Part shown: positions 9,548 through 23,673 of the stretch, piece by piece | How the letters are laid out: every line of letters begins with the position of its first letter | Position numbering within the stretch: position 1 is the stretch's first letter | Notes under the pieces: model-generated | The model's database searches: none | What the model saw: only the letters and a program-made list of their open reading frames with translations | What the model was told of the DNA's origin: nothing | Program-made: the position numbers and the translations under genes | Origin: a virus | Strand: one strand, 5' to 3' | Virus record (IMG/VR): IMGVR_UViG_3300042549_010246 | Coordinates: 20,706 to 84,705 of that record | Length of the DNA stretch: 64,000 bases

Positions 9548-10273
9548 ATGGAAATCAAAATACCCGCAATTCAAAAGGAGTGGAAAGTCCCATCCAATCA
9601 ACCACCTTGGAAAAACCAAGCAATATCTGTAATTAAGAAAATTAAAGCAAATTACAGTGTTCAAATGGCAAAAGCATCACAATATACAGGTGTTCCTGTG
9701 AATATTTTGGTAGCGTTTGCGGCTACGGAGAGTGGAGGTGCTTTGAATCAAACTTTAAATGGACCATCAAAAGGTATTATGCAAGTCAATCCGTCATCGG
9801 CTTGGCAGGCTTTATCTGACCAAATAAAAGTCGATACAATAGGTCGTTTTTATCCTTTGTATCAATTGGCACCAAATGCATTTGTTGTAAAGAAAGCGGT
9901 TGCTGCTAATTCTGTAGGAAAGGCTACTGATTATCTCACTTTGAAGCCTGTTTCTACGGCTGCGCCTTACCTTGGACAAAGAATGGTGGCAGATGCACAA
10001 TTCGCTATTTATATGGGGTCGTTATTGTTGGCTCAGTTAATTGCAGGAACTATTGCAAAAACAGGTCAGATTCGTCTTGACCATATTATTGTAAAGTATA
10101 ATGCGGGCACGGGTCGATTTAAACAGGTTGTAACAAATCGTGGTTTGGAAAGTGCGAGTGTGGATACCACCCAACTATACAGCAAATTAGGGATTCCTGT
10201 TTCTCAAGCGTACATTGTCAAGATGATGGGAATCAATGGATATTTAGATGTGCAAAAACAGGGATTGGCGTGA
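9548..10273 (+). CDS. lytic transglycosylase (SLT family)
   Basis: Catalytic ATESGG, GIMQV, YNAG motifs. Confidence 0.8.
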   Translation: MEIKIPAIQKEWKVPSNQPPWKNQAISVIKKIKANYSVQMAKASQYTGVPVNILVAFAATESGGALNQTLNGPSKGIMQVNPSSAWQALSDQIKVDTIGRFYPLYQLAPNAFVVKKAVAANSVGKATDYLTLKPVSTAAPYLGQRMVADAQFAIYMGSLLLAQLIAGTIAKTGQIRLDHIIVKYNAGTGRFKQVVTNRGLESASVDTTQLYSKLGIPVSQAYIVKMMGINGYLDVQKQGLA

Positions 10274-10309
10274 TAACAATAACGGCATTGAACTGTAGAA
10301 AAAAGTCAC

Positions 10310-10317: not shown

Positions 10318-10342
10318 TTTTAACAATTTAATTAATAACGCT

Positions 10343-10462
10343 ATGTCAAACACTAAATCAGGATTCGTACCAATGGCTATTGGAATTGCATTGTCTCTTG
10401 CCACAATTTATGTTATTGCATATTTTGCAGGTAAAGGATGGGAAAAGGCAACCGATAAATAA
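10343..10462 (+). CDS. 39-aa membrane protein (not in ORF track)
   Basis: MSNTKSGFVPMAIGIALSLATIYVIAYFAGKGWEKATDK. Confidence 0.65.
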   Translation: MSNTKSGFVPMAIGIALSLATIYVIAYFAGKGWEKATDK

Positions 10463-10464
10463 TT

Positions 10465-10959: not shown

Positions 10960-10969
10960 TAAATAAAAA

Positions 10970-11329
10970 ATGGAAAATTCAACAGCAACACCTGCAGCAG
11001 CAGCACCCGCAACACCCGCAGCACCTGCGGCACCCGCAGCACCCGCGGCACCATCAGCACCCGCTATGGCACACGGTGGTAGCGTTGCAGACGCAGCACC
11101 ACAAATGATAGAGGGTGGTGATGTATCATCAATAGAAAATAATTGGGGCACTTGGATAGCCATCGGTTTAGTCTCTCTTACGCTTGTTGCATTAATTTTA
11201 CAGATTGCTGTACATCGCAAAAATTTGAAAAAAGTCGATGCAGACGATGAAGCATTGCTTAAAGATGTCAGAGAACTGAAAATGAATGTGAAGAAACAAA
11301 TGGGCGAAAAGTATGAAACCTTGGCTTGA
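10970..11329 (+). CDS. Pro/Ala-rich membrane protein with MAHGG motif
   Basis: (PAA)n N-term, MAHGGSV, one TM, coiled C-term. Confidence 0.75.
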   Translation: MENSTATPAAAAPATPAAPAAPAAPAAPSAPAMAHGGSVADAAPQMIEGGDVSSIENNWGTWIAIGLVSLTLVALILQIAVHRKNLKKVDADDEALLKDVRELKMNVKKQMGEKYETLA

Positions 11330-11960
11330 CGAAGTTACATATGGCAACCCAAATGATGAACTACTTCCTTATTTAGAAAAAGGGGAATTCGATTTCGTTT
11401 ACGAATCCCTAAAAAAATATCCCTTTCCCAAAAACACTTCGGAGACGACGAGGGATGAAATGAGAGAACTGATTTCAATTCAGAACGCTCCCGAACAAAA
11501 AAACGAAGAAATTATGTCGAGGTATCTAAACTACGACGAACACTTCGGAGATGTGATAAAAACCTATTGTAAGGAAAAAATAGGTGTAGATATGGATGAG
11601 GTTATTGACTCAATAACAAAAGATGGGTACTATGTTCTTGTTAAATTAAAATTTTTCTATCAGCGACCACGCCCCTATCAGTTGGCACAATATTTAAGGG
11701 CGCGGCTTTTTCCATATAAGGCCCCTTCTGCACTGACTCCCGCATATCCTTCGGGACATTCATTTGAGTCATATGCGTTAGCGGAATTTATTGGAAGTAA
11801 ATATCCTGAACACTATCAGTTTTTAACTGATTTAGCACACGACATATCAATTAGTCGATTATTTCTTGGATTGCATTTTGCCTCGGATTTGGATTTTGGC
11901 AGATTTGCGGCTAAAAAATATGTCGGCTCAAAACAATTTGCAAGTAAATATGGAATATGA
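11313..11960 (+). CDS. PAP2/haloperoxidase-superfamily phosphatase
   Basis: KxxxxRPRP, YPSGH, SRxxxGxHxxxD signature. Confidence 0.85.
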   Translation: MKPWLDEVTYGNPNDELLPYLEKGEFDFVYESLKKYPFPKNTSETTRDEMRELISIQNAPEQKNEEIMSRYLNYDEHFGDVIKTYCKEKIGVDMDEVIDSITKDGYYVLVKLKFFYQRPRPYQLAQYLRARLFPYKAPSALTPAYPSGHSFESYALAEFIGSKYPEHYQFLTDLAHDISISRLFLGLHFASDLDFGRFAAKKYVGSKQFASKYGI

Positions 11961-12363: not shown

Positions 12364-12760
12364 ACAACTATTTTCAGCATTAAGTGAAACGCTGAATGAA
12401 ATTGGTTATATGAGAACAATTCACCTTCTGAGGAAGGGGCAAGAAAATGTATGGAATTCTGATTTAAAACTTGCAACGGATGCTGTTTGCAAGGTGTTTA
12501 ATATATCTCCCGACGTAGTATTTGGCAAATCAAGAAAATATCCCCGAAAATATGCTTTTGCAATTTGGGTTTATTTATCATACACTAAATTAAATTATAC
12601 TTTGCCTGACTTAGTGAATTATACACACAAGTCGTTATCCACTATTAGCAAGGCGAAAGGCACAATCGACAATCGAAGAAACACAACGGCATTTGAAAAA
12701 AAGATTAATGACAAACTTGATGAATGCATCACAATCATAAATGAAATTAAACCCGAATAA
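12326..12760 (+). CDS. DnaA C-terminal-like HTH protein
   Basis: VCKVFNISPDVVFGKSRK...WVYL...TLPDL...HKSLSTI resembles DnaA domain IV. Confidence 0.55.
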   Translation: MTRQRKIETKPIEQLFSALSETLNEIGYMRTIHLLRKGQENVWNSDLKLATDAVCKVFNISPDVVFGKSRKYPRKYAFAIWVYLSYTKLNYTLPDLVNYTHKSLSTISKAKGTIDNRRNTTAFEKKINDKLDECITIINEIKPE

Positions 12761-13737
12761 TGATGGAAAATACAGAAAATGTGAATTCAGAAATCTTTGA
12801 AGATTTCTCCCCGCTTACGCAAGACAATGTAATTCAACGTGATTACACAAAACCAAACGTAGACTATTCCCAAGTCAATGCAAGCCCTATTGAAGAGCCC
12901 ATATTTACCGCACCTTCTTTTGAGGATATGGATAAACATTGGAACTCAAAAGGAGTTGAAGAGGCGCAAATCATAGATGAAAAGGCAAGTGCAAATCCAT
13001 ATACTGAAAACCTTGATAAAAAAGACCAACGGAAAGCGTCAGCGGCTTTAGTCGAGGCTTTATTGGATGGGTATTCTCAGTTAAATAAATTTGGTAACAA
13101 ACTTGTTCAATTCAATCCCGAAAAAATTCAAGCGATGATGCGCTCAGGGGAAATAGACCCTGATTTGACCATCCCTATTAATGGTAGGAATATTGGAGTG
13201 CTCGACTATGTAAACGCATACAATGAGGAAACGTCAACGGTTATTTCTGTGGATGATGACTTCAAAGACAAGGTTCGTCCTTTGTTAATTGAAGAATTTA
13301 TGGAGCGGAATATCGGTATGACCCGCCTACAACTTATTGGATATTATTTTGGTACAGATTTGTTGACTAAGGGAACATTAATTTATTCATTAAGAAAGCA
13401 AAATCAAGCAGTATTGGATTCATTGGTGGAAATAAGTAATAATTCACGTCCTGCGCCAACACCACAAGCAAGTCGTGTAGAGAAGACTGAACCTAATACT
13501 GAAGAGAAGCCTGTTAGGGAGCCACAACGCGAATTTGTAGAACCCGAGGAAGAATACGCTGTGATTGAGGATTTCGAACCAATCATTGAAGTGAAAAATG
13601 CAAATGACGACGTGAAGCGTTCAAGAAAACCAACAGCAGGACCAAGGTTCGGTGACAGTGCGATTTTAGAACAAATGGAACAAATTGCCAATGGTGAAAC
13701 CTCGTCCAAGCGTAGAGGAAGACCAAGGAAAAAATAA
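12760..13737 (+). CDS. hypothetical protein with C-terminal AT-hook, immediately upstream of the ATPase
   Basis: Ends KRRGRPRKK; acidic termini. Confidence 0.7.
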   Translation: MMENTENVNSEIFEDFSPLTQDNVIQRDYTKPNVDYSQVNASPIEEPIFTAPSFEDMDKHWNSKGVEEAQIIDEKASANPYTENLDKKDQRKASAALVEALLDGYSQLNKFGNKLVQFNPEKIQAMMRSGEIDPDLTIPINGRNIGVLDYVNAYNEETSTVISVDDDFKDKVRPLLIEEFMERNIGMTRLQLIGYYFGTDLLTKGTLIYSLRKQNQAVLDSLVEISNNSRPAPTPQASRVEKTEPNTEEKPVREPQREFVEPEEEYAVIEDFEPIIEVKNANDDVKRSRKPTAGPRFGDSAILEQMEQIANGETSSKRRGRPRKK

Positions 13738-13746
13738 TTTAAAAAT

Positions 13747-14568
13747 ATGAGAGAACCATTATTGGGCGTAGCCGTCGGAAAGAAAGGGGTAGGGAAAACC
13801 TTTACAACCAATAGGGTGATTAAACAATATGTGATGGGTAATCCCGCTTCGGGAATTATGCCAAGAAAAGTTTTGATTTTAGATGCAAACGATGAATATA
13901 CTGAGTATAAGGCAATTGCATTAAAGGATTTGATGTTGTTTAGTGTACACCCTTTGGTTGAAGCAAGAAGAATTAGACCGATTCACCCCGACGGTAAAAA
14001 AATGACCTTGGATGATTTGGCTGCTACGTTGAATTATATTTTGGAGGTATTTTCAGGGGGCCTATTATTGATTGAAGACATTAATCGATTTACTTCTGAT
14101 TTTATGCCACAAGATTTAATGGGAGCGATTGCGACGAATCGACATCGTGACTTGGACATCATTTTACACTATCAAGGTATAGGTCGTATTGGAACGAAGG
14201 TATGGCAAAATATCAATTGGCTAAGGATGCATAAAATTACGGAGTCCGCAATCAGGCACGCCAAAAAGTTTGAAGATAAATATGAGATAATCCGTATATG
14301 CGAATTGATGGTAAACATTCAGTATTTTTTGGGTAACGAAAGGACTTTTCAGTACATCGATTGTGAGAATATGTGTTTTCAAGGTAAGGTGGATGAAAAA
14401 CTATTTGCAGATGCTTGTAAGCAATATTTGGAGGAAAATTATCGTAGAATTATTTCACCACTTTTACAGATTCGTGGTGTGGGTGATAAAAAGAAATTTA
14501 CTGCAGATACCGCAATGAAGTCTGAGATGGAAAGATTGCGTAAAATGTATTTAAAAAGGCAAGTGTAA
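13747..14568 (+). CDS. FtsK/HerA-superfamily (A32/PRD1-P9-like) genome packaging ATPase
   Basis: Walker A GKKGVGKT near the N-term, Walker B LLLIED, RH...IILHYQ (Arg finger plus Gln sensor); 273 aa with no nuclease domain. Confidence 0.75.
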   Translation: MREPLLGVAVGKKGVGKTFTTNRVIKQYVMGNPASGIMPRKVLILDANDEYTEYKAIALKDLMLFSVHPLVEARRIRPIHPDGKKMTLDDLAATLNYILEVFSGGLLLIEDINRFTSDFMPQDLMGAIATNRHRDLDIILHYQGIGRIGTKVWQNINWLRMHKITESAIRHAKKFEDKYEIIRICELMVNIQYFLGNERTFQYIDCENMCFQGKVDEKLFADACKQYLEENYRRIISPLLQIRGVGDKKKFTADTAMKSEMERLRKMYLKRQV

Positions 14569-14600
14569 GTTACATTAAGTGTACTATACAAATAATCGAT

Positions 14601-14628
14601 AAGCCCCCTTGTAAACAGGGGGTTTTTC
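14601..14628 (+). terminator. intrinsic terminator
   Basis: AAGCCCCCT-TGTAAAC-AGGGGGTTT hairpin plus T tract. Confidence 0.7.
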
Positions 14629-14706
14629 ATTTTATATACTTGTATTTTACCATACAAATATTATTTGCTAAAATAATCAATCGATAATAGTACATTTTAT
14701 CAAAGG

Positions 14707-14714
14707 TATTTTTG
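14707..14714 (+). promoter_or_regulatory. Bacteroidota-type -7 element for capsid-candidate operon
   Basis: TATTTTTG after the terminator, before 14755. Confidence 0.5.
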
Positions 14715-14754
14715 AAACAATAAGCAGTCTGAACGGCTTATAAAACAAAAACTT

Positions 14755-14868
14755 ATGAACGTAGAATCTTTAAAAAAAATCGGAGGACAAGTCCTTTTAA
14801 TTGTAGTCGGTGTTATTGTTGCTAATGAAATTCAAAAGCAAATTGACAAACGTCGCGCAGCAATGTAA
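14755..14868 (+). CDS. 37-aa membrane protein co-transcribed with capsid candidate (not in ORF track)
   Basis: MNVESLKKIGGQVLLIVVGVIVANEIQKQIDKRRAAM. Confidence 0.7.
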   Translation: MNVESLKKIGGQVLLIVVGVIVANEIQKQIDKRRAAM

Positions 14869-14906
14869 ACTCACAAAAAAACAAAAACCTTAAAAAAACA
14901 AAAACT

Positions 14907-15608
14907 ATGAATAATGTCCGTAAATACCTTGCTGACGCACAAAATCGTGCTCACGAGGGCTTCTTGAATGCCGATGGCTTCTTTGATGACGATTTGAACT
15001 TCACCGCAGGTGATGATTTTATGAATGCAAATGGCAACGACGCTATGCCTGCTGCCGCTCCAACCTCACAACCTTACATCATTCAAATTTCTAACACAGG
15101 TTCTGCTGTTGCGAATTTCAGTGTATTGGGTTCTTACGAGCAGTTGGGTGATACTGCAGCATTTACTTCGGGTAACTTTATATCAGGAGACGTGACTATT
15201 TCGTCTGCTATTCCAAACGTAACCTATCAGCAAATGTTGTATCAGTTTATGAACAACCCTTTCAGCACAGGTTTGACTTACATTCAGTCTTCTTCAAACA
15301 CACAGTTGTTGGAAACAATCAGTGTGCAAACTAAAGACGCGAATGGTAACGTGGCCCAAAAGCCTTTGGTGCCTACTATTGACCCATATCAGTTTCAGAC
15401 TACCGTCCTTGCTCTCCGTTTCGGATACAGAATTGACGGTTACACTAAATTGATTTTGAATTCAATTTTGGCTTCAACCACCGTGAAGTTGTATCTGTAC
15501 CCTGCAGACAACATCAACTTGGCTCGTGGATTGTCAGGACGCGCTGTATCAAAAGATTTCAGCAGCCCAGGCATTGTACGTGCTCAAACCGTGAAAATCC
15601 AAGGTTAA
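14907..15608 (+). CDS. putative major capsid protein (single jelly-roll candidate) with acidic N-terminal leader
   Basis: Follows packaging ATPase; own promoter and strong terminator; alternating beta-strand pattern; many C-ending codons; fold is inferred. Confidence 0.55.
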   Translation: MNNVRKYLADAQNRAHEGFLNADGFFDDDLNFTAGDDFMNANGNDAMPAAAPTSQPYIIQISNTGSAVANFSVLGSYEQLGDTAAFTSGNFISGDVTISSAIPNVTYQQMLYQFMNNPFSTGLTYIQSSSNTQLLETISVQTKDANGNVAQKPLVPTIDPYQFQTTVLALRFGYRIDGYTKLILNSILASTTVKLYLYPADNINLARGLSGRAVSKDFSSPGIVRAQTVKIQG

Positions 15609-15629
15609 TCCCTTTTTTACGATTTATAG

Positions 15630-15668
15630 AAAAGGGGCGATGGCACACAGCCTCGCCCCTTTTTTTTT
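15630..15668 (+). terminator. strong intrinsic terminator
   Basis: AAAAGGGGCGATGGC-ACACA-GCCTCGCCCC followed by T9. Confidence 0.85.
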
Positions 15669-15690
15669 AATAGGCTAAAATCAAATAATT

Positions 15691-15861
15691 ATGGCATATA
15701 AAGTCAAATTGGGTAACAAGGATTACTTCTCAGAAGAATTTTCTTCAGAGACGGAAGCAAAAAAAGCAAAGTATTTCGCCATTGTAGGTGCAAAAACTTT
15801 TCGCAGTGCATCGAAATCGATGGACACAAAAATTGTAAAAGTTGTAAAAAAGAAAAAATAA
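15691..15861 (+). CDS. 56-aa basic protein (not in ORF track)
   Basis: MAYKVKLGNKDYFSEEF...KVVKKKK; stop overlaps next ATG. Confidence 0.6.
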   Translation: MAYKVKLGNKDYFSEEFSSETEAKKAKYFAIVGAKTFRSASKSMDTKIVKVVKKKK

Positions 15862-16244
15862 TGACAATCTACGAGTATATCGCAAGAAACAATCCGATGG
15901 GTGCTAAAAGAGTAATTGAATCTTTTGGCTATGTGGTAACACAACCTAAAAAAATGGGCGATAACCTTCGTATGTTGGTTGCGCAAGAAGGAGAGCCCGC
16001 TTTAAAAGCAGTCGTTGATTTACATCCTGATAAAGACTTAATTTTAGAAGTTTTCGGGAATAGTCAAAGTGTTAAAGCAACGGGTGAAAATTTCTTTGGA
16101 GCCGATGGTCTACTTCAAAGCGCAGTTTTAAATAACAACCAACAGCAAAATGACAGCAACAATAAAATGGTGCTTCAAACAAACACATTAATTGTGGCCT
16201 TATCACTCCTTGTAGTTGCAGGGTTAATATTAAAGAATCGATGA
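15861..16244 (+). CDS. C-terminal TM protein, putative virion membrane protein
   Basis: Terminal hydrophobic helix; FFGADG motif. Confidence 0.7.
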   Translation: MTIYEYIARNNPMGAKRVIESFGYVVTQPKKMGDNLRMLVAQEGEPALKAVVDLHPDKDLILEVFGNSQSVKATGENFFGADGLLQSAVLNNNQQQNDSNNKMVLQTNTLIVALSLLVVAGLILKNR

Positions 16245-16843
16245 AAAATTTGAAACCTAACGAAATTTACGCTGTATCAGCGATGACAATTGACAACAAT
16301 ACTGAAGGGGTAAAAACCCTGATTACAAAGTATGGTGTCATTTTGCCAAACAATGCAAGTCGAAGTGATATTGACAAAGCATTTGCAGCCCTTTTAAGAA
16401 AGAGTAAATCTTTCCGCAACGATTTTGCTGTATTGGCGGCAAATGAAAGTCAGAAGAGCGAAAACTTCTCAAATTTTATGGAATTTTTAGGTATGTCAGG
16501 AAGAGGTATTGGAACAGCAAGTGCTCCTTTAAAAACTCCCGACCCAATTCCTGTAAAAACAAGTTTACCGAACACAACTGCAAAAAAACCAAGTGCATTT
16601 GCGGAAGCATTTGATGCTGACACAATTAGAAACGTCATCAATACGGGATTAAATATTTGGGCTACCCGCTCAGGTACTACAGCCTCAACTACAAATGATT
16701 TACAATCAGGTAGGGAATCTTTGAATTTACAACCCCAAAGTCAACAAACACGTGGTATTGGAACGACGGGAATCGTTTTGATTTCAATTGGTGCACTTGC
16801 AGCGGTAGGTGTTTTGATTTATTACCTATCTAAAAACAAATGA
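16241..16843 (+). CDS. C-terminal TM protein
   Basis: Terminal GIVLISIGALAAVGVLIYYL-KNK. Confidence 0.7.
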   Translation: MKNLKPNEIYAVSAMTIDNNTEGVKTLITKYGVILPNNASRSDIDKAFAALLRKSKSFRNDFAVLAANESQKSENFSNFMEFLGMSGRGIGTASAPLKTPDPIPVKTSLPNTTAKKPSAFAEAFDADTIRNVINTGLNIWATRSGTTASTTNDLQSGRESLNLQPQSQQTRGIGTTGIVLISIGALAAVGVLIYYLSKNK

Positions 16844-16844
16844 T

Positions 16845-17018
16845 ATGGAAAATAAAGATTATACCAAAGTCGTTGGATACTCTCAAATAGGTGGTGCCAT
16901 AGGTATCATTTATGCATTTTCAACAAAATCAGGATTCTTCAAAGGGGTCGGCTATTATTTAGTTGGGTCTTTTGTTGCAGGACTGATTGCATCAGGTGTG
17001 ACCGCAGTAAAGAAATAA
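16845..17018 (+). CDS. 57-aa two-TM glycine-rich membrane protein (not in ORF track)
   Basis: MENKDYTKVVGYSQIGGAIGIIYAF... Confidence 0.65.
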   Translation: MENKDYTKVVGYSQIGGAIGIIYAFSTKSGFFKGVGYYLVGSFVAGLIASGVTAVKK

Positions 17019-17242
17019 TGGCAAACGAATTTCAAGACGCTTTAGACAATGTTAAAGAACTGAGTGGACAATCTACTCACGATACCTTTTTGAAGCAAAG
17101 CAAGCGCATTATGAAGGGCAGTGCTACAGGTCTTGTTGTTGGTTTGATGTATGGATGGTACACGAAAAAAAATATTTATGTAACTGCAATACTTGGAGTA
17201 ATTGCAGGAGGCGCGGTTAATTACTTTATTTTCTCAGAATAA
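17018..17242 (+). CDS. two-TM membrane protein
   Basis: Gly-rich hydrophobic hairpin. Confidence 0.7.
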   Translation: MANEFQDALDNVKELSGQSTHDTFLKQSKRIMKGSATGLVVGLMYGWYTKKNIYVTAILGVIAGGAVNYFIFSE

Positions 17243-17246
17243 AATT

Positions 17247-17654
17247 ATGACTTTAGATTCAGCGATAAAATATAAAGATTTTTCGAACCCAAATATAGTT
17301 CGTGCAAGGCCAATTAATATACAAATGGCCAATGATGACTATTTTTCTGTAGCGGGTCCTGCGGGCGCAACACAATTAAAACTCACCAAGGTTTTGACTG
17401 TAAAAAATGCTCAGGGTAAAAATACGAATTATGAGGTGGGTTCAGTTGTTTGGGCGTTCCCTATTCAAACCATCGCCAAATCAAATAGTTATGTTTTTAC
17501 AACGGAAGGTCAAGGGTATATTTTGACTGTAGGTGTTAACGCTGAAATTTATAATCAAAAAGAGTCTAAAGAGACAAAAAAAGGTTTTCCTTTTTCTTTA
17601 GTCGGATTAGCCTTAATCGGAATAGTAATAATTTATACAATGAAAAAATTATGA
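17247..17654 (+). CDS. C-terminal TM protein
   Basis: ATG at 17247 preferred; terminal TM; YFSVAG motif. Confidence 0.65.
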   Translation: MTLDSAIKYKDFSNPNIVRARPINIQMANDDYFSVAGPAGATQLKLTKVLTVKNAQGKNTNYEVGSVVWAFPIQTIAKSNSYVFTTEGQGYILTVGVNAEIYNQKESKETKKGFPFSLVGLALIGIVIIYTMKKL

Positions 17655-17752
17655 AAACAGCGAATGATGAAAAGAAAAAAGGTGGTGCGTTGATGCTTGT
17701 AGGTTTTGCGATGCTCGCCTATGTTGTTTATAAAATAATCGAAAGTAAATGA
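17651..17752 (+). CDS. 33-aa membrane peptide (not in ORF track)
   Basis: MKTANDEKKKGGALMLVGFAMLAYVVYKIIESK, coupled on both sides. Confidence 0.6.
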   Translation: MKTANDEKKKGGALMLVGFAMLAYVVYKIIESK

Positions 17753-17973
17753 AAAAAGAATATATTGAAGCCCTCGTTTTAATTGGAGCCATTGGATTGG
17801 CTATTTACTTAGCAAGTTCTAAGGACTCCGTATTGAAAAGTGCAAAATCAAATTCTCCAACACCGACAGGACCAAAAGGCGGTTTTGAGAATTTCACTGC
17901 AGACGAATTAACTTATGACGACCATTTGTATGGAAATGCAGATGGAGGATTAAAAGGTTTAACATTTAAATAA
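17749..17973 (+). CDS. N-terminal TM protein
   Basis: N-terminal anchor; YGNADG motif. Confidence 0.7.
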   Translation: MKKEYIEALVLIGAIGLAIYLASSKDSVLKSAKSNSPTPTGPKGGFENFTADELTYDDHLYGNADGGLKGLTFK

Positions 17974-17981
17974 ATAAAACT

Positions 17982-18071
17982 ATGACAAAAAACACAAAAA
18001 CAATCTTGACTTTAGCCGCTGTTGCTGCGGTATTGTTCTTCGTTTTCAAGAAGCCAAAAACAGACGCTTAA
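17982..18071 (+). CDS. 29-aa membrane peptide (not in ORF track)
   Basis: MTKNTKTILTLAAVAAVLFFVFKKPKTDA. Confidence 0.55.
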   Translation: MTKNTKTILTLAAVAAVLFFVFKKPKTDA

Positions 18072-18082
18072 TTGTAATTGAA

Positions 18083-18577
18083 ATGAATCGTGACGTATTA
18101 TTAGGCGCGGGGGTCGTTTTGGCCTTCATCGTCCTTGTTAATCGAGCCAAAAAAAACCAAGTAACTGACACCCAAGGTGGCGGTGGTGGTGGTGGCGGTG
18201 GTTTTGGTGGTGGTCCCTTTGTAGGGGGCGTACCCGCAGGACCAATGACTGTCAATACTATTGTTCAACCCGCAGCGCGTCCTGCAAATCAAGGACGCTC
18301 TTACAACGCTGCTGATGTGACTAAAAGTAAAGACACCACTCCAACTGCAGCAGTTACAAGTTCCGCTCAAGCAAAAGCGATAGAAACAGCCACCAACACG
18401 GGTGGAATCGTTCCTATCGGTCAAGGGGGAAGCAGTACACCTACCTACAGCACAGGGACAGTGACTCAAGCAGATTTAGCGAAAGGTGTTGCAGGTAACA
18501 CTGTATTCAAACCTTTCAGCGGAGATGCTAAATTCTTGGGATTTGTAGGTTCAAGACCTAAATTTGAATTTAATTAA
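18083..18577 (+). CDS. N-terminal TM protein with poly-Gly linker
   Basis: Anchor, G9 run, low-complexity T/A/G body. Confidence 0.7.
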   Translation: MNRDVLLGAGVVLAFIVLVNRAKKNQVTDTQGGGGGGGGGFGGGPFVGGVPAGPMTVNTIVQPAARPANQGRSYNAADVTKSKDTTPTAAVTSSAQAKAIETATNTGGIVPIGQGGSSTPTYSTGTVTQADLAKGVAGNTVFKPFSGDAKFLGFVGSRPKFEFN

Positions 18578-18578
18578 T

Positions 18579-18860
18579 ATGTTGTCAGCAAATAAACTAT
18601 ACAAGGAATCAGGTACCACTTTGTCTTTCAAAGAATGGTTGGAGCGTGAAAAGGCAAAAGGCAAATTCATTCCCAACGTGGAAGCGATGGAAGAGTTTGT
18701 GAATGCCGATGGTGGAACTTCAGAGCAAGCCTCTGAGCAACCCGAAATCACAGCGAAATCAGTTGAGAATAAACAGATGTTTACCTCGATTGCTCGAGTA
18801 GGTTTAATTGTTGTATTGACATACTTCGTTTATCGAACTATCAAAAATGAAATTAAGTAA
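18579..18860 (+). CDS. C-terminal TM protein
   Basis: ATG 18579; FVNADG motif; terminal TM. Confidence 0.7.
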   Translation: MLSANKLYKESGTTLSFKEWLEREKAKGKFIPNVEAMEEFVNADGGTSEQASEQPEITAKSVENKQMFTSIARVGLIVVLTYFVYRTIKNEIK

Positions 18861-19071
18861 TACTCAAATAAAGCGCATCATTATTGCAGGGGGATTTTTC
18901 TTCCTGCTTTTGCGCTTTAGAGGATACTTAAATCCCTCAAAAGAAACATTGTCGGCAAAAGACGATAGTGTTTCTGCAAATGGTACCAAATCGGTAATCG
19001 ACAGAGCGATTCACAAAGTAAAAAGTGGCGCGGTAAAAGTTGCAAGCACACCATCTGAAATAAAAAACTGA
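18847..19071 (+). CDS. N-terminal TM protein
   Basis: Hydrophobic N-term. Confidence 0.6.
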   Translation: MKLSNTQIKRIIIAGGFFFLLLRFRGYLNPSKETLSAKDDSVSANGTKSVIDRAIHKVKSGAVKVASTPSEIKN

Positions 19072-19853
19072 TGAAAGAACAAAGAATTGCAACAAAATAT
19101 GCTCCACTTACGCTGTGTGTGGTTTTGAAAACTGAATTCCCTACCAAATTAAACTTGGTGGTGTTTGATGCAAAAAATCCGAAGAGGAAGTTTACTGAGC
19201 GTTACAAAACAGTAACAGGGGAAGAAACGCTGTTTGTTCGAATGCCGTTATCTCCTGACACCGCTGTTGTTCAGGTGTTTGGAGGCGCGGGGATTACAAA
19301 AAAGAATGATTCCAATTTTACTATTGTAAGAGTTTACAAAAAAGGGTTGGAGCGTCGATTTGATTTGAATGATATTGGGAACCCCCAAATACGTTCATTC
19401 GTCAAATTCGCGCAGAAATTTTGTTTTAATGTGAGTGAATTAGAGCCTGAAGAAACTTATCGAAGTGATGACGGAGAATATTTCATTCAGTTAAAGCAAC
19501 AAATCAGAGATGCAAATGGAAAAGTGTTGGGTACTCCCGCACGTATTGGCCGTCAGACGGGGGTTATTCAAGTGAGTAAAACACAATTTGAAGCCTTTAC
19601 AATTCCTATGCGAATGGCAATATTGCTCCACGAATTTTCACATTTTTACTTAAATGAAAAAATGGATGATGAAATGGAGGCAGACTTAAATGGATTGTTG
19701 ATTTATCTCGGACTTGGATATCCAAGGATTGAGGCTTATCAAGCGTTTCTTGAAACATTCAAAAATGCACCAAGCAACTTGAATAAAAAACGCTATGATA
19801 TGATTAATAACTTCATCAACAATTTTGAAAAAATGGACATTGTAATAAAATAG
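19071..19853 (+). CDS. zincin-type metallopeptidase, candidate maturation protease
   Basis: ILLHEFSH (HExxH) followed by EMEAD third-ligand motif. Confidence 0.7.
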   Translation: MKEQRIATKYAPLTLCVVLKTEFPTKLNLVVFDAKNPKRKFTERYKTVTGEETLFVRMPLSPDTAVVQVFGGAGITKKNDSNFTIVRVYKKGLERRFDLNDIGNPQIRSFVKFAQKFCFNVSELEPEETYRSDDGEYFIQLKQQIRDANGKVLGTPARIGRQTGVIQVSKTQFEAFTIPMRMAILLHEFSHFYLNEKMDDEMEADLNGLLIYLGLGYPRIEAYQAFLETFKNAPSNLNKKRYDMINNFINNFEKMDIVIK

Positions 19854-19855
19854 AG

Positions 19856-20278
19856 ATGGCAGTTACAACTTGGAATACAGCACCTAATTATGATGAATGG
19901 GGTCCTGATGACTCTTGGAGTTGCGAGGATTGGATACAATGGCACAAATTGCTAAAATTAAAGTTTGGCAAGGAAAAGGCTAATTATGTTTGGAATTATG
20001 CTTACGCTCAAGGTACGCAAGGAGCATCCCATTGGAGTTGCAGGACAAGCAATACTGCGTTTCGTAATTATACATCCAAAGAAGGATTGAATCCGTATGA
20101 GAGTGCGGGGGCATTCGCTCCAATTTTGAATGTTATTGGAGGAGTGGGCGACGTTGTTAGTGGCACAGGAGATGTATTGTCCAATTTGGGAAAAAATTTG
20201 AAAATAATCACATATATAGCCGTTTTAGGTGTGGCTATTTATGTAGGTGTAACCGTTTATAAAAAGACGAAACAATGA
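19856..20278 (+). CDS. C-terminal TM protein with Trp/Cys-rich N-domain
   Basis: WSCEDWIQWH...WSC; terminal TM. Confidence 0.7.
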   Translation: MAVTTWNTAPNYDEWGPDDSWSCEDWIQWHKLLKLKFGKEKANYVWNYAYAQGTQGASHWSCRTSNTAFRNYTSKEGLNPYESAGAFAPILNVIGGVGDVVSGTGDVLSNLGKNLKIITYIAVLGVAIYVGVTVYKKTKQ

Positions 20279-20433
20279 AAAAAGAATTTATCTATATCGG
20301 TGGTATATTGATTTCGTTAGGTGCAATTTATTATATTTTTAATCAATACAAAAAAAATAAGGATGGTTCAGCCGCTTTAGAAGATAAAGAAATCATAGCG
20401 TTGTTTAAAAAAATTGATTCAGCAAAAAAATGA
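20275..20433 (+). CDS. 52-aa N-terminal TM protein (not in ORF track)
   Basis: MKKEFIYIGGILISLGAIYYIF...; coupled on both sides. Confidence 0.65.
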   Translation: MKKEFIYIGGILISLGAIYYIFNQYKKNKDGSAALEDKEIIALFKKIDSAKK

Positions 20434-20975
20434 GCGCAGAAAAAGGATTGAAATATGGGTTTTTTGCCTTGGCAGGGATTGCAGTAATTCTTGGTGTAGT
20501 ATTATTGGGCAAAAAGAAACCCGATGACGACGGGGGCGGGGGAGATGAAGTTGAACCTGTAAAACCAAATCAGCCCGTAATTGACCCAAGGCAAGCGGCA
20601 GTACCGTTGGATTTAAAAGCAATTCTTGCAAGCAAAGACCCTATGTCACTATTGAAAGGTCGAAAACTTTATGCAAAAATTAACAAAGCAAAAGGTAGAA
20701 ACGAAGCAAGAGTAAATGATGGTTGGGGATTAGGTAGTAATGTAATTTTCGAAAGTACGCCCGAAGGGGAATTTCTTGGGTATGCACAATTTGTTTCAAA
20801 TGATAGAAATTCCGCTAAAGATGCTAAGGGTAAAGTGTATAAATGGATTCGCATTACTTTAGACGATAAGGCTTGGAATCGATACAATGACACCAAATCT
20901 TTCTTGACTCGACAGTTAGTAAAAAATAAAAATAATGATTGGGCTTACTTCAGAGAAGATGTAATTAGATTTTAA
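20430..20975 (+). CDS. N-terminal TM protein with possible SH3-like C-domain
   Basis: Anchor, linker, beta-rich domain ending WAYFREDVI. Confidence 0.6.
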   Translation: MSAEKGLKYGFFALAGIAVILGVVLLGKKKPDDDGGGGDEVEPVKPNQPVIDPRQAAVPLDLKAILASKDPMSLLKGRKLYAKINKAKGRNEARVNDGWGLGSNVIFESTPEGEFLGYAQFVSNDRNSAKDAKGKVYKWIRITLDDKAWNRYNDTKSFLTRQLVKNKNNDWAYFREDVIRF

Positions 20976-20976
20976 T

Positions 20977-21525
20977 ATGAAAAAAATAGTACTGAATAAA
21001 AATTTACAATATGGCCTTTACGTAGTAGCGGCTATAATTGGTGGTTTTGCAATAGTAAAAATTGTCAAAGCAATTAAAGACAATGCGGATAAAGGTGATG
21101 ATGATGACAAAAAGCCTGAACCTGAAACCAAAACGGTTTATGTAGATGCATACTTGTCGAAGTTACCTTTAGGAGTAGATAATTTGACTTGGGGTTCACG
21201 AATCCCCGCGAAGTATTTACCGTCTTTTAATGCTATTTCAGCAGCCAATTCAGATGCTACATTTAAAGCGAATGCTATCAGAGTTCAAACTTTGTTGAAT
21301 CAAAGACTTGCCGCGATTGGTGGTGCTTACCCAAAAATAACAGTTGATGGAAAAATTGGTGAAGAAACAACCAAAGCGATGTTGGCAGTTGCAAGCCAAT
21401 ATGGTAGATTGAACTTATTACCTTTAACGAAAAAAGAAGACCTGAACAATTGGTTGACTTTTTTCAATGTAAAATCAACTTCGGATTCTTCTCCAAAGAA
21501 TGAATTCCCATTTTTCAACAAATAA
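20977..21525 (+). CDS. N-terminal TM protein with peptidoglycan-binding-like motif
   Basis: VQTLLN...VDGKIGEETTKAM resembles PG_binding_1. Confidence 0.6.
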   Translation: MKKIVLNKNLQYGLYVVAAIIGGFAIVKIVKAIKDNADKGDDDDKKPEPETKTVYVDAYLSKLPLGVDNLTWGSRIPAKYLPSFNAISAANSDATFKANAIRVQTLLNQRLAAIGGAYPKITVDGKIGEETTKAMLAVASQYGRLNLLPLTKKEDLNNWLTFFNVKSTSDSSPKNEFPFFNK

Positions 21526-21537
21526 TACGATAAGAAT

Positions 21538-22098
21538 ATGGACATAGATTCTTTTTTCACAGATGGCGACCTAAGTTTCGGAATGGACGGTGCAAGCCCT
21601 AAATTCAAAAACTTTGCAGGAACAGGTCAAAATGTTTCGAGGGGACCTAAATATGGTGAATTTCAATTCAATAAATACCCCGAGTATGGGTTTACTGATG
21701 ATATTTATTCAAACGCTACGGGCGGTTCAAGGTTAAATCAGCCAACGGAATGGTATGTTTCAAAACTTTCCGAAGCCGATAAAAAAGACTGTAAAAAATT
21801 GCAGGGTATTATGGATAATATTTCCATAGATATTGATAAGAACAACAAAAAAATAAGCACTGCAAAAAGAGGTGAAAGAAGAGTTCTTGAAGAGTATAAC
21901 AAGGGCTTGGAATTGGCAGGCAAAAGAGTATTGGAATTAATGAACGCTGCAAATTGCACTCTCGTTCAGCAGGAAGAATTTAATAAAGCGTTAGGCGCGG
22001 CAGGTGCACCATCAAAATCATCGAAAGTTGTTTTGTATGTTGGCATTGGAGTTGCAGCCTTGGCTCTTGGAGTTGTACTTTACAAAAAATTTAAGTAA
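21538..22098 (+). CDS. C-terminal TM protein
   Basis: FKNFAG and YSNATG motifs; terminal TM. Confidence 0.7.
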   Translation: MDIDSFFTDGDLSFGMDGASPKFKNFAGTGQNVSRGPKYGEFQFNKYPEYGFTDDIYSNATGGSRLNQPTEWYVSKLSEADKKDCKKLQGIMDNISIDIDKNNKKISTAKRGERRVLEEYNKGLELAGKRVLELMNAANCTLVQQEEFNKALGAAGAPSKSSKVVLYVGIGVAALALGVVLYKKFK

Positions 22099-22865
22099 TG
22101 AGAACAAACATCAGTAAACAATTGGGATTACCCATCGCTCCCCCACAGCCTAAAGCACCGTCTATAGAGGCTCAATTGGGTTTTGTAGCAGAATATGATA
22201 ATTCTTTGAATAAAAGTAATTTTAATTTCGTAGCAGAATATGATAAGTCTTTAAACACCAAAAATAATGGTGGCTATTTTGACGCTACAGGAGAAGAAAA
22301 GAACTTCAAAGAATATTACAAAGGAAATGTTGCAAACGTTCGCGCTTTGTTGGCACAGGAGAAAATTTCTACCTCAGAGGATTTAGATTTTCTTGAAGCC
22401 AAGAAAAAGTTTTATCAAGAAGGAAAGAAATCTTTGGAAAAAGATATCAATGGTATCAAAATAAATCAAGCACAAAAAGCATTTGGGACGCAAGCCTATA
22501 CACAGCGCGGAAAATATGTTTCTCAATTATGGAGCGTAGATAAAACAATCGAATTGATTGATGAAAGAATTGCGGATGTAAAAGTCATTTTGGAGAAAAG
22601 AGCGGCAAAGGCGAAGGCTGATGCAGATGCGGCAGCAGCAAAAATGAAAGCAGAAGCAGAAGCCGCCAAACAAGCAAAAATCAATGCATTAAAAAAACAA
22701 ATTGCAGAATCTAATGACCCGAATGCCAAAAAACAACTGAAGGACCAATTGAATGATTTATTGCAGGAAGGAACTGAAGGAGTGAAATCAAACAAATTTA
22801 TTTTGATTGGTGGAGCGGTAGCCGTCATTGGAATTTTGTATTACTTTTTTAGAAACAAGGAATAA
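22098..22865 (+). CDS. coiled-coil C-terminal TM protein
   Basis: FVAEYDxSLN duplicated, YFDATG motif, Ala/Lys coiled coil, terminal TM. Confidence 0.7.
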   Translation: MRTNISKQLGLPIAPPQPKAPSIEAQLGFVAEYDNSLNKSNFNFVAEYDKSLNTKNNGGYFDATGEEKNFKEYYKGNVANVRALLAQEKISTSEDLDFLEAKKKFYQEGKKSLEKDINGIKINQAQKAFGTQAYTQRGKYVSQLWSVDKTIELIDERIADVKVILEKRAAKAKADADAAAAKMKAEAEAAKQAKINALKKQIAESNDPNAKKQLKDQLNDLLQEGTEGVKSNKFILIGGAVAVIGILYYFFRNKE

Positions 22866-22867
22866 TT

Positions 22868-23164
22868 ATGTCAATTCAATATCAAGGTGCAGGTTATAGT
22901 TCATTTGAAGAATTTATGAATGATACGGGCGTAGACAAAGATAATTTTGCCGATGCTAAAAAATCAGCAAATCAATTTGGAACCAAGTTTCAAGAAACAT
23001 TCAATAAAGAATTTAAAAACCAATATACGGAGGCTAAAGAAAGGGCCAAAAGATTGGATTCGCAACCAAAAGTGTTGAATCCCATTCCCAACAGTTTATT
23101 GTATTTTGGATTGGTGACGGCAGGTATTTATTTGGCATATTCGTTTATTTTCAAATCAGAATGA
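22868..23164 (+). CDS. C-terminal TM protein
   Basis: FMNDTG motif; terminal TM. Confidence 0.7.
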   Translation: MSIQYQGAGYSSFEEFMNDTGVDKDNFADAKKSANQFGTKFQETFNKEFKNQYTEAKERAKRLDSQPKVLNPIPNSLLYFGLVTAGIYLAYSFIFKSE

Positions 23165-23673
23165 AGAAAAAATTATTAATCATTGGAGGTGCTACAATTG
23201 TAGCCGCGATAGCGTTCAGGACGTTATATAAGAACTTGTATTTAGCAGGTCAATGGGATTTTAATATGGGTACTTTCGGCATAAAATCTTTAAAGCCCCT
23301 TATAGTAACCCAAACTATTGATTTTATCAACAAAAGCAATTTAAAGTTAACTGTGAAAAACATCAAAATTGGTGTTTATAGCAATGATATCAGAATCGGT
23401 CAAATCGATAGGGCTAATGAGCAAACTATCGGCCCAAAAGGTATCAGTAAGTTCACTTTAGAGTATGCTTTAACTCCAACTTTAGGGAATCAAGCCGCTA
23501 AAGATGCAATTACAAAAGTCGCGTCTACCTATTTGCAGACAAAAGACTTACCTGTGGACTTTGTTGGTTCCCTTGACGTAAAAACTCCATTTGGTTTTGT
23601 GACCGTTCCCGTAAGATATTCATCCACGGGGAAAAATTTATACAAATTGTGGTATGAATATATGAACGGATAA
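23161..23673 (+). CDS. membrane-anchored LEA_2/WHy-like protein
   Basis: N-anchor plus INKSNLKLTVKNIKIGVYSNDIRIG...TIGPKGIS pattern. Confidence 0.6.
   Translation: MKKKLLIIGGATIVAAIAFRTLYKNLYLAGQWDFNMGTFGIKSLKPLIVTQTIDFINKSNLKLTVKNIKIGVYSNDIRIGQIDRANEQTIGPKGISKFTLEYALTPTLGNQAAKDAITKVASTYLQTKDLPVDFVGSLDVKTPFGFVTVPVRYSSTGKNLYKLWYEYMNG

Follow-up and report, generated by a model that had tools for sequence, protein, structure and literature searches.

The window analysed here is a 64,000-nt stretch (positions 20,706 to 84,705) of the 84,705-bp IMG/VR virus record IMGVR_UViG_3300042549_010246, and it contains the candidate particle-building gene block of an uncultured 85-kb bacterial virus from lake water. 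This block encodes a DNA-packaging-type ATPase, a coat candidate with a predicted jelly-roll-type fold and many small membrane proteins, as in tailless, membrane-lined viruses, while no terminase, portal or HK97 capsid match was found anywhere in the 84.7 kb. The record is estimated by CheckV as 100% complete, and its genome is about twice the size of that of the largest such cultured phage compared here. A literature search found no description of this lineage.

Organization of the putative morphogenesis module

The first-pass annotation, made from sequence alone, had described a stand-alone 273-aa ATPase with FtsK/HerA-A32 features, a separately promoted and terminated unit of a 37-aa membrane peptide and a 233-aa beta-rich protein, and about 20 consecutive membrane-anchored genes (12760-23673), without any recognisable terminase, portal, HK97 capsid, tail tube or tape measure in 64 kb. 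This observation is confirmed, although the promoter is less certain and the run of membrane genes is near-consecutive rather than strictly consecutive. The three ORFs, all on the + strand, lie at 13747..14568 (273 aa), 14755..14868 (37 aa) and 14907..15608 (233 aa). The peptide and 233-aa genes are bracketed by two hairpin terminators, the first at 14598..14628 (+), after the ATPase gene (dG -15.8 kcal/mol, z -3.58), and the second, after the coat candidate, at 15628-15665 followed by U9 (annotated as 15628..15668, +; dG -25.6 kcal/mol, z -6.58), for which 0 of 200 shuffles fold as well. A TATTTTTG motif at 14707..14714 (+), 48 nt before the peptide start codon, matches the Bacteroidota -7 promoter element TAnnTTTG. 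However, this is a single motif and the full two-part pattern is not enriched in the window (5 matches against 3.56 expected). RNA-library contigs from four studies lie on the peptide and coat unit and, in two runs, bridge the two genes, once with no difference, but such assembled contigs may derive from DNA contained in the RNA libraries.

The 37-aa single-pass membrane peptide (TM segment at residues 5-23) occupies the position held by the small membrane proteins gpi/P20 between the ATPase and coat genes of PRD1. Downstream, 20 co-directional small genes (15691..23673, +) were examined by a Kyte-Doolittle scan (19-residue window, threshold 1.6), and 17 of them encode proteins with a single N- or C-terminal TM segment, which are candidate virion membrane proteins. 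The exceptions are a 56-aa basic protein, a 74-aa protein that is borderline at 1.41, and a 260-aa HExxH protein. In the 22 genes from the peptide gene to 23673, 18 have a TM segment, against 20 of the 91 other genes of the record (Fisher p 2.9e-7). Several of the small proteins (127, 74 and 93 aa) are conserved in distant relatives.

The 260-aa soluble protein (19071..19853, +) is a candidate zinc metalloprotease of the module, with an HExxH...ExExD motif in which H187, E188, H191, E201, E203 and D205 are invariant in 14 of 14 sequences down to 37% identity. It has no Pfam or PHROG match, and an Atlas match to DUF4344/M48 metallopeptidases (score 0.87) is a lead only. Just upstream of the ATPase, at 12760..13737 (+), always lies a gene encoding a 325-aa protein with an acidic N-terminal half and a basic C-terminal tail (RRGRPRKK), inferred to be a candidate DNA-binding packaging accessory. 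It has no Pfam or PHROG match, but homologues occur in 18 of 24 fetched loci at 28-89% identity. Further upstream, a 215-aa PAP2-superfamily phosphatase (11313..11960, +; Pfam PAP2 E 9.9e-11), with BLASTP homologues in 17 of the 24 loci, may modify lipids or lipid carriers. A 241-aa protein (9548..10273, +) with an SLT lytic transglycosylase domain (Pfam E 2.7e-6) and one predicted TM segment (residues 152-170) lies outside the 12760-23673 region but belongs to the same membrane-protein block. It is a candidate virion-associated wall-degrading enzyme, and PRD1 P7 and P23-77 ORF31 are annotated transglycosylases in the same kind of module.

The ATPase is closest to A32/B204-type packaging NTPases

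The 273-aa protein carries the Walker A motif GKKGVGKT and the Walker B motif LLLIED, and residues G11, K13, G16, K17, E110 and D111 are invariant in 40 homologues, 33 of which have a DUF87/HerA Pfam match while 4 give weak Zot matches. It was modelled confidently by AF2 (pLDDT 89.6). In a Foldseek search of the PDB, the 12 best rows shown are all B204, the genome-packaging NTPase of the Sulfolobus turreted icosahedral viruses STIV/STIV2 (Turriviridae), the best being STIV2 B204 (E 1.1e-10, TM 0.69 on the target), four orders of magnitude better than the next family, followed by Zot (2.8e-6) and HerA (8.7e-6). Similarly, VIA ranked B204 first (Z 18.7, with 187 residues aligned to the 204-residue chain at rmsd 2.7), followed by HerA (16.1), VirB4 (14.7), TrwB (12.5) and FtsK (10.4). 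No other member of the A32-like branch of the FtsK-HerA superfamily is known to have a solved structure. Both proteins are small stand-alone P-loop proteins encoded in a capsid gene block. However, they share only 16-17% identity, there is no sequence-level PDB match, and the lake virus protein has about 60 extra C-terminal helical residues. In addition, STIV infects a thermophilic archaeon and has a genome of about 17 kb, whereas the host here would be a lake bacterium and the genome is 84.7 kb.

The 233-aa protein is a candidate major capsid protein

The 233-aa protein is the most conserved of the lineage, with 1382 homologues forming 579 clusters at 50% identity. The AF2 model (pLDDT 87.4, pTM 0.79) predicts an N-terminal arm (helix 3-16, disordered 17-49, two [FY]xNAxG motifs) and a beta-sandwich core of jelly-roll type at residues 50-233. 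About 20 of the 50 best non-redundant VIA rows are virus coat proteins, as are 30 of 50 in a second comparison, which includes the second barrel of PRD1 P3 at Z 5.6. However, these matches are weak. No PDB match reaches Foldseek E<=0.001 (best 3.5e-3), and the VIA Z score is at most 6.3, a range that may reflect only a common arrangement. Non-viral beta-sandwiches rank equally, with the AlgX CBM at Z 6.1, plus TNF/C1q and podovirus tail proteins, and there is no profile similarity to any known coat protein, nor any sequence link to the coat proteins of PRD1, P23-77 or SSIP-1.

A 149-aa partial paralogue of the coat candidate (49913..50362, +), consisting of the core only without the N-arm, was identified by a profile match (E 5.8e-6 to positions 98-192) and by BLASTP (35% identity over 71 aa). 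It is present in 10 of the 11 records searched with the profile, with counterparts in the relatives numbered G001-G009 but not in G010, and it may, speculatively, be a vertex or minor capsid protein. The same domain occurs as extra paralogues far from the module, with up to six matches in one 102-kb relative including a tandem form. Hence the fold alone does not imply a coat role. No penton, second major coat protein or lipid-synthesis gene was identified in this genome.

Tailed-phage functions and genomes of the relatives

Every ORF of 180 aa or more in the whole record except the 5338-aa ORF, 68 ORFs in all, was scanned against Pfam and/or PHROGs, and none gave a terminase, portal, HK97 capsid, tail tube or tape-measure match, with two qualifications. 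The ATPase itself has a weak P-loop-region match to phrog_2666 'terminase large subunit' (E 0.0011), and collagen-repeat proteins match 'tail fiber' PHROGs. Six-frame searches of the record with PF03237 and PF05065 found nothing at E<=1, while the same TerL search was positive in 8 of 14 control genomes, and the same holds for HK97. The record nevertheless encodes fibre, lysis and recombination functions known from tailed phages, including RecT (phrog_148, E 2.4e-44), RusA, SLT and collagen fibres.

Relatives are 70-132 kb, and records estimated at 86-100% complete are 70-102 kb. The ATPase always precedes the coat candidate, an order that holds in 16 other fetched loci and in 7 whole records. 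One complete relative has an exact 123-bp inverted terminal repeat.

The interpretation given in the first-pass annotation, a lineage of >64-kb single-jelly-roll membrane viruses of Bacteroidota that also uses fibre, lysis and recombination genes typical of tailed phages, is only partly supported. Two findings had been named in advance as able to overturn it, a coat candidate lacking a jelly-roll fold and a terminase, portal and HK97 capsid in the rest of the genome, and neither was observed. The A32-type reading of the ATPase is strongly supported by structure, and the use of tailed-phage-type genes is confirmed. However, the jelly-roll assignment rests on weak matches, and the tailless icosahedral shape and internal membrane are inferred from gene content alone. 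A Bacteroidota host is likewise an inference, because relatives appear only in MAG bins labelled with eight unrelated groups, bacterial and archaeal, the promoter pattern is not enriched, and only the lack of Shine-Dalgarno motifs and one bin fit that host.

Comparison with known membrane-containing viruses

In PRD1 (Tectiviridae), the order P9 ATPase, gpi/P20 small membrane proteins, P3 coat, P22 and many small membrane proteins plus a transglycosylase mirrors this module. However, the ATPase profile matches P9 only at the P-loop (probability 6.4%), the coat core has room for one jelly roll and not two, no protein-primed DNA polymerase or terminal protein family was found in the scans, and the PRD1 genome is 14,927 bp. 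The inverted terminal repeats of one relative are a further point in common with PRD1.

The Thermus phage P23-77 (Matshushitaviridae) and the sphaerolipovirus-type viruses have two single-jelly-roll coat proteins. The ATPase profile weakly matches the putative packaging ATPase of P23-77 (hhalign probability 85.9%, E 5.3e-6, 151 columns), the order ATPase, small ORF, coat, then small structural or membrane proteins is shared, and the coat core is the size of a single jelly roll. One relative, G005, has two coat-type genes flanking the ATPase, whereas the present genome has only one full-length coat gene. The coat family has no profile similarity to VP16 or VP17 (probability 0.1% and 0.6%), and the P23-77 genome is 17,036 bp.

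SSIP-1 is a large tailless membrane phage with a giant structural protein, gp43, encoded by a 6,960-nt gene, compared with the 5338-aa fibre here, and a review describes it as having a PRD1-adenovirus-type architecture and two coat protein types (PMC6356626). However, no HMM or BLASTP similarity was found for any protein, and its P-loop protein gp40 matches only at the P-loop (probability 5.1%). Its genome is circular and 43,788 bp, against 84.7 kb here with a likely linear form in the lineage.

Alternative interpretations

A membrane-containing virus of another shape (pleomorphic, enveloped, spindle or filamentous) remains possible but unlikely. In this view, the 233-aa protein would be a matrix, nucleocapsid or spike protein rather than an icosahedral coat, and the ATPase would act in DNA transfer into a vesicle-like particle. 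The low scores of the coat fold matches (Z 4.5-6.3), the TNF/C1q-type and fibre-knob proteins among them, the lack of an identified penton, the unusual number of membrane proteins and the paralogues in accessory regions speak for this reading. However, B204/A32-type ATPases are known from viruses that package DNA into preformed icosahedral membrane-lined capsids, and B204 is the clear top match. Furthermore, the gene order matches that of PRD1 and P23-77, and the most conserved protein of the lineage has an N-terminal arm, as many coat proteins do.

It is more doubtful that the record represents a head-tail phage with terminase, portal, HK97 capsid and tail genes diverged beyond detection and hidden among four large proteins without informative family match (764, 550, 969 and 1094 aa), the ATPase serving another function. 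The 'tail fiber' and terminase PHROG matches could point in this direction, and the published 'tailless' cyanophage PA-SR01 turned out to encode terminase and a capsid protein (PMC7431792), such that claims of this kind can mislead. Against this, the profile scans of 68 ORFs and the six-frame searches at E<=1 gave no TerL or HK97 match, the fibre matches are to collagen repeats, and the 273-aa ATPase has no nuclease domain and a predicted fold closest to B204 rather than to a terminase. Finally, a HerA-like ATPase with a transglycosylase and many membrane proteins also resembles a secretion or conjugation apparatus of a large mobile element, as suggested by the VirB4 and TrwB structural matches. 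This reading is very unlikely, since B204 outranks both, the protein is a third the size of VirB4, and no relaxase, VirB4-size ATPase, pilin or integrase family was found in the scans, nor any integrase on the 132-kb relative. In addition, the records are free 70-102-kb contigs in a virus collection, with RecT, RusA, fibres and a phage replication-initiator domain.

A model for virion assembly

The best explanation, held with moderate confidence, is that this is the morphogenesis module of a large, uncultured freshwater phage lineage that builds a tailless virion lined or wrapped by a lipid membrane. The analysis itself shows that the 273-aa protein is a B204/A32-type packaging NTPase by structure, that it always sits just upstream of the lineage's most conserved gene, encoding the predicted jelly-roll-type protein, that this gene and the peptide gene lie between two strong terminators, that the block is flanked by about 25 genes for single-pass membrane proteins, a lytic transglycosylase, a PAP2 phosphatase and a conserved HExxH protein, and that no terminase, portal or HK97 gene is detectable in the estimated-complete record. 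The roles of these proteins in a particle are inferred. The 233-aa protein would form the shell, standing on a lipid vesicle by its N-terminal amphipathic arm, and the small membrane proteins would populate that vesicle. The ATPase would dock at one vertex and pump the probably linear dsDNA into a preformed membrane-lined procapsid, with the 37-aa peptide as its membrane anchor or conduit, by positional analogy with PRD1 P20, and the 325-aa protein handling DNA. The putative zincin may trim N-arms and ectodomains at shared [FY]xNAxG motifs, while collagen-like fibres would act as vertex spikes. In this view, the lineage would follow the PRD1/sphaerolipovirus strategy rather than the head-tail strategy.

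Genome context and gene content

The window occupies bases 20706-84705 of a single 84,705-bp IMG/VR virus record, which is classed as linear and has a CheckV completeness estimate of 100. Exact comparison of the ends of this record revealed no direct or inverted terminal repeat. The stretch 12760-16300 is found almost entirely (share 0.86-1.00) in 14 sequencing runs from 13 studies, 12 of them labelled lake-water metagenome and two simply metagenome, although nine of these runs may be the sample of origin.

The observation made in the first-pass annotation, namely a stand-alone 273-aa ATPase followed by a separate unit of a 37-aa membrane peptide and a 233-aa beta-rich protein, about 20 membrane-anchored genes and no recognizable head-tail gene, was confirmed. 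The three ORFs are as described. The peptide and the 233-aa protein are encoded between two hairpin terminators, the first at 14598-14628 (dG -15.8, z -3.58) and the second, which is very strong, at 15628-15665 followed by nine U (dG -25.6, z -6.58). A Kyte-Doolittle scan identified one transmembrane segment in 17 of the 20 genes between 15691 and 23673. Counting from the peptide gene, 18 of 22 genes encode a transmembrane segment, against 20 of the 91 other genes (Fisher p 2.9e-7). Membrane proteins also continue upstream of the ATPase (8463-11329), together with an SLT transglycosylase and a PAP2 phosphatase.

Every ORF of 180 aa or more in the whole record except the 5338-aa one, 68 ORFs in all, was scanned against Pfam and/or PHROGs. 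The recognizable functions are RusA, RecT, a Cas4-like exonuclease, a Phg_2220_C replication-initiator domain, SLT, PAP2, RelA/SpoT fused to DUF2958, a MoxR-type AAA ATPase, glycosyltransferases, FkbM methyltransferases and collagen-repeat fibres. The only terminase hit is a weak P-loop match of the 273-aa ATPase itself to phrog_2666 (E 0.0011), while the tail fiber hits correspond to collagen repeats. Six-frame searches for Terminase_6N and for the HK97 Phage_capsid family (PF05065) found nothing at E<=1, whereas the same searches were positive in 8 and 4 of 14 known control genomes, respectively. Similarly, no capsid or portal match to PHROGs or Pfam was obtained among the 68 ORFs, although very divergent forms in four large unassigned proteins cannot be excluded in the absence of structures. 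The features expected of Caudoviricetes (large terminase subunit, HK97-fold capsid protein and portal protein) were therefore not found. No family corresponding to a VirB4-size ATPase, a coupling protein or a relaxase was found in the Pfam scans, which does not fit a type IV secretion or conjugation system. No polymerase family was found in the Pfam or PHROG scans of all large ORFs, and the lack of terminal repeats in this record likewise differs from the protein-primed family B DNA polymerase, terminal protein and inverted terminal repeats of Tectiviridae.

The 5338-aa ORF spans 31618-47634. GC content jumps from about 0.35 to 0.53-0.56 across it and long ORFs are open on both strands, as expected for Gly-X-Y repeats. 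Multi-domain glycosyltransferase/FkbM methyltransferase genes (25725-31625) lie just upstream. Further upstream, the 1094-aa protein (4052-7336) contains 11 copies of [MFIL]xxGG, mostly MA[DK]GG, and the next gene (7333-8448) fuses DUF2958 to a RelA/SpoT domain, with FADGG between them. However, the loose motif [MFIL]xxGG is not enriched genome-wide (33 observed against 30.06 in shuffles). A tRNA-Met (CAT) gene at 63207-63279 is the only tRNA in the window.

The ATPase

The 273-aa protein carries the Walker A (GKKGVGKT) and Walker B (LLLIED) motifs of P-loop NTPases, in which G11, K13, G16, K17, E110 and D111 are invariant in 40 sequences. A structure model built on 40 homologues is confident (pLDDT 89.6, pTM 0.86). 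Foldseek against the PDB returned B204, the genome-packaging NTPase of STIV2 and STIV, in all of the 12 best rows examined (best E 1.1e-10, TM 0.69 on the target, 17% identity), followed by the Zot N-domain at 2.8e-6 and HerA at 8.7e-6. A VIA search over 48,161 chains, which is independent of Foldseek, also placed B204 first, with Z 18.7 and 187 residues aligned to the 204-residue chain at rmsd 2.7, followed by HerA 16.1, DndH 15.8, VirB4 14.7, TrwB 12.5 and FtsK 10.4. The predicted fold is thus closer to a solved packaging NTPase of the A32/B204 branch than to other FtsK-HerA members, and the protein is small, stand-alone and encoded next to the coat candidate.

At the sequence level, 33 of 40 family members match Pfam DUF87 (HerA central domain) and 4 match Zot. 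The family profile aligns with the putative packaging ATPase of Thermus phage P23-77 over 151 columns (hhalign probability 85.9%, E 5.3e-6), but with PRD1 P9 only at the P-loop (6.4%), these two being the only reference ATPases compared. Phmmer and profile searches of the PDB with the ATPase and the coat candidate gave only P-loop or chance matches. In addition, tblastn of the coat candidate, the ATPase and a paralogue against 50,697 phage records, from which this record or close ones may be missing, found no match.

The coat protein candidate

The 233-aa protein has no Pfam or PHROG match and no PDB sequence match below E 0.4, but it belongs to a very large family, with 1382 proteins at E<=0.001 among 1782 candidates in the 90% clusters and 579 representatives at 50% identity, 292 of them at E<=1e-10. 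A model based on 124 diverse members is confident (pLDDT 87.4, pTM 0.79) and shows an N-terminal helix (3-16), a disordered linker and a beta-rich core over residues 50-233 with pLDDT mostly above 90. Fold searches gave only modest scores: the best Foldseek E against the PDB was 3.5e-3, with no match at 0.001 or better, and the best VIA Z was 6.3, within a range of 4.5-6.3. What matches is nevertheless telling. About 20 of the 50 best non-redundant rows are virus coat proteins, including those of nepovirus and comovirus, dicistrovirus and iflavirus, the PBCV-1, EhV-201 and faustovirus major capsid proteins, adenovirus hexon, and virion proteins of PR772, PM2 and phiCjT23. In a second VIA search, 30 of 50 rows are coat proteins, with the second barrel of PRD1 P3, which was compared by structure only, at Z 5.6 and 5.4. 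However, non-viral sandwiches rank alongside them, such as the AlgX CBM at Z 6.1, together with TNF/C1q, endospore appendage subunits and podovirus tail proteins. Foldseek against BFVD gave 9 matches at E<=0.001, all with TM 0.17-0.26 and mostly unnamed, and an ESM Atlas search was uninformative (best score 0.76).

The family profile shows no similarity to P23-77 VP16 or VP17 (hhalign 0.1% and 0.6%), and no match to SSIP-1 was found. VP16 and VP17 did not appear among the 50 rows examined in either VIA search, which does not exclude a relationship. Hence, the model suggests a fold of jelly-roll type with room for one barrel, but these matches are weak and membership of any known coat family is not shown. 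The record also lacks both the two coat proteins of the sphaerolipovirus type and the two barrels in one chain of the PRD1 type, as it contains one full-length copy plus a weak 149-aa paralogue.

Several lines of evidence still favour a role as the coat. The 233-aa protein and the ATPase are the two most conserved proteins across relatives. A full-length copy lies downstream of the ATPase in 16 other loci, and the three loci with an ATPase only are cut by a contig end. The same pair occurs in every searched record of at least 68% estimated completeness, that is, in the relatives numbered G001, G004, G005 and G007-G010. The order ATPase, tiny membrane protein, coat and many small membrane proteins is the annotated order in PRD1 (P9, gpi, P20, P3, P22, P18 and onward) and resembles that of P23-77 (ATPase, ORF14, VP15, VP16, VP17 and onward). 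The gene also lies in a terminator-bracketed unit, as expected for a gene needed in large amounts.

In four metatranscriptome runs from four studies, contigs 85-100% alike lie on 14757-15763. One 223-nt contig is identical over 14769-14991 and bridges the peptide and coat genes, as do two contigs of another run. Because these are contigs assembled from RNA libraries, they are a hint of expression and co-transcription, not proof. In two runs, contigs of close relatives continue past the coat stop codon into the next gene and replace 56-57 nt, which include the terminator hairpin, with 7-10 other letters (15618-15676), so the terminator region differs between strains. No contig lay on 12760-14660 apart from one 34-nt piece, an absence which is not evidence about expression of the ATPase.

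Two alternative coats were considered and rejected. The 325-aa protein encoded upstream of the ATPase was considered as a double-jelly-roll coat, but its sequence has an acidic N-terminal half and a basic C-terminal tail. Tandem jelly-roll-type proteins were considered as the coat in their own genomes, but in the 102-kb relative G007 the tandem gene (G007:C1:17375-18409) lies about 38 kb from the ATPase, while a canonical full-length copy sits beside the ATPase.

Paralogues of the coat candidate

The coat-family profile also identified a 149-aa core-only paralogue in this record (49913-50362, E 5.8e-6; BLASTP 35% identity over 71 aa). Counterparts occur in G001-G009, hence in 10 of the 11 records searched, while G010 has none. 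Relative G005, a complete 70-kb genome, has a second 217-aa coat-type copy directly beside the ATPase (G005:C1:28573-29070; locus L013 6784-7437; E 2.6e-49), a two-coat arrangement like that of sphaerolipovirus-type viruses, which was found only in this relative. Two natural proteins of the sequence library carry two tandem copies of the predicted jelly-roll core, P0129 (397 aa, domains of 149 and 151 bits) and P0203 (411 aa), but the tandem forms lie away from the module. G007 has six matches to the family in all. The domain has therefore been duplicated repeatedly, which weakens the argument from fold to coat function but singles out the canonical copy, which bears the N-terminal arm and is linked to the ATPase.

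A candidate metalloprotease and a shared motif

Inside the membrane-protein block, the conserved soluble 260-aa protein at 19071-19853 contains an HExxH motif. H187, E188 and H191, and the three acidic residues E201, E203 and D205 located 10-14 positions downstream, are invariant in 14 of 14 sequences down to 37% identity. An ESM Atlas search gave a lead, and no more than a lead, to DUF4344/M48 metallopeptidases (score 0.87). The motif [FYM]x[ND]A[DNTQ]G occurs 7 times in the proteins of the record, against 0.24 in shuffles (maximum 2 in 300). Six of the seven fall within proteins of the module (14907-22865), in the coat N-terminal arm (twice) and in four membrane proteins, although the pattern was defined after seeing the data. 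The looser form [FYM]x[ND]xxG is present within the first 70 residues in the N-terminal arm of 55 of 124 coat-family members. A zincin-based maturation step is a reasonable hypothesis, but it rests on sequence alone.

Lineage and host

Records estimated at 86-100% complete measure 70,173, 72,545, 72,652, 74,717, 79,724, 84,705 and 102,228 bp. A 132,486-bp contig (G006:C9), binned with a Sediminibacterium MAG, is colinear with this genome over about 100 kb. It has a uniform GC content of 0.30-0.35, lacks an integrase and appears wholly viral, so it is a larger relative rather than a prophage and extends the size range of the lineage to at least 132 kb. No polymerase or terminal-protein family was recognized in the 84.7-kb genome. 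The ends of the 72,545-bp relative G001, estimated to be complete, carry an exact 123-bp inverted terminal repeat. No record is flagged with direct repeats. This fits a linear genome whose ends are usually lost in assembly, but it is a single observation.

The Bacteroidota host proposed in the first-pass annotation is not demonstrated. The Bacteroidota promoter pattern TTTG-N17-21-TAnnTTTG is not enriched, with 5 matches against 3.56 expected and 28 of 100 shuffles reaching 5. Among 185,579 species genomes, ATPase relatives were found only on 9 MAG contigs, labelled Bathyarchaeia, Ignavibacteria, Gammaproteobacteria, Opitutia, Chlamydiae, Bacteroidetes, Sediminibacterium, Planktophila and one uncultured bacterium, which were interpreted as mis-binned free virus contigs. 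Shine-Dalgarno 4-mers occur upstream of only 7 of 105 genes, against 10.45 +/- 3.1 at random, and leaders are 47% A, which fits Bacteroidota but also other phyla. The absence of Shine-Dalgarno motifs with A-rich leaders, a TATTTTTG element before the peptide gene and the Sediminibacterium and Bacteroidetes bins are compatible with Bacteroidota.

Comparison with known viruses

SSIP-1 has a circular genome of 43,788 bp and infects a Salisaeta host. It encodes one giant structural protein (gp43, a 6,960-nt gene at 26863-33822), which parallels the giant fibre of this virus without sequence similarity, and no detectable protein similarity is shared between the two genomes. SSIP-1 is described as having PRD1-adenovirus-type architecture with two coat types (PMC6356626). 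[quoted passage not shown] The 137-kb cyanophage PA-SR01, reported as tailless, encodes terminase and a capsid protein, and is therefore not a precedent (PMC7431792). No description of the present lineage was found in the literature, although subscription journals and supplementary files were outside this search.

Interpretation and significance

The interpretation proposed in the first-pass annotation, a large single-jelly-roll virus with an internal membrane, is partly supported. The analysis supports its core, as it establishes the genome size, the membrane-protein block and the lack of detectable head-tail genes, gives good support to the A32/B204-type assignment of the ATPase and provides a coat candidate whose jelly-roll-type fold is predicted from weak matches. 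In contrast, the role of the ATPase in packaging, which would be ATP-driven and occur at a unique vertex, is inferred from its family, and the coat role of the 233-aa protein, as the most abundant virion protein forming capsomers over a lipid membrane, is likewise inferred, as are the host, the lipid content and the shape of the particle. The virus would thus follow the packaging motor and module layout of known tailless membrane-containing phages, but with a larger genome and a coat candidate without detectable sequence relationship to the coat families compared.

A more far-reaching possibility, which remains doubtful, is that this virus is a founding member of a deep, undescribed lineage (family level at least, possibly far higher) of tailless membrane-containing phages with 70-132-kb genomes that is abundant in lakes. 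Its shell would be built from one single-jelly-roll protein family unrelated in sequence to known coat proteins. As this family is seen within the lineage as one gene, as two genes flanking the ATPase and as tandem fusions, it would provide a living series for how double-jelly-roll proteins could arise. In this view, the virion would mature through a zincin acting at [FY]xNAxG motifs shared by the coat arm and membrane proteins, a kind of maturation code that is not known to have been reported for tailless phages.

Tailless membrane-containing phages are regarded as small, and the genomes of PRD1, P23-77 and SSIP-1 compared here measure 14.9, 17.0 and 43.8 kb, respectively. The present lineage is diverse and widespread. 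It has 579 coat clusters at 50% identity, and lake-water metagenome runs from 13 studies contain this exact stretch, although nine of these runs may be the sample of origin. Standard marker-based tools that look for terminase or HK97 capsids would miss it. It also offers a testable case for coat-protein duplication and for protease-based maturation in this kind of virus. A lineage of 70-132 kb with the same packaging motor and module layout, carrying glycosylation enzymes, a 5338-aa fibre and phage-type recombination genes, would extend this building plan in bacteria toward the size range seen in eukaryotic viruses.
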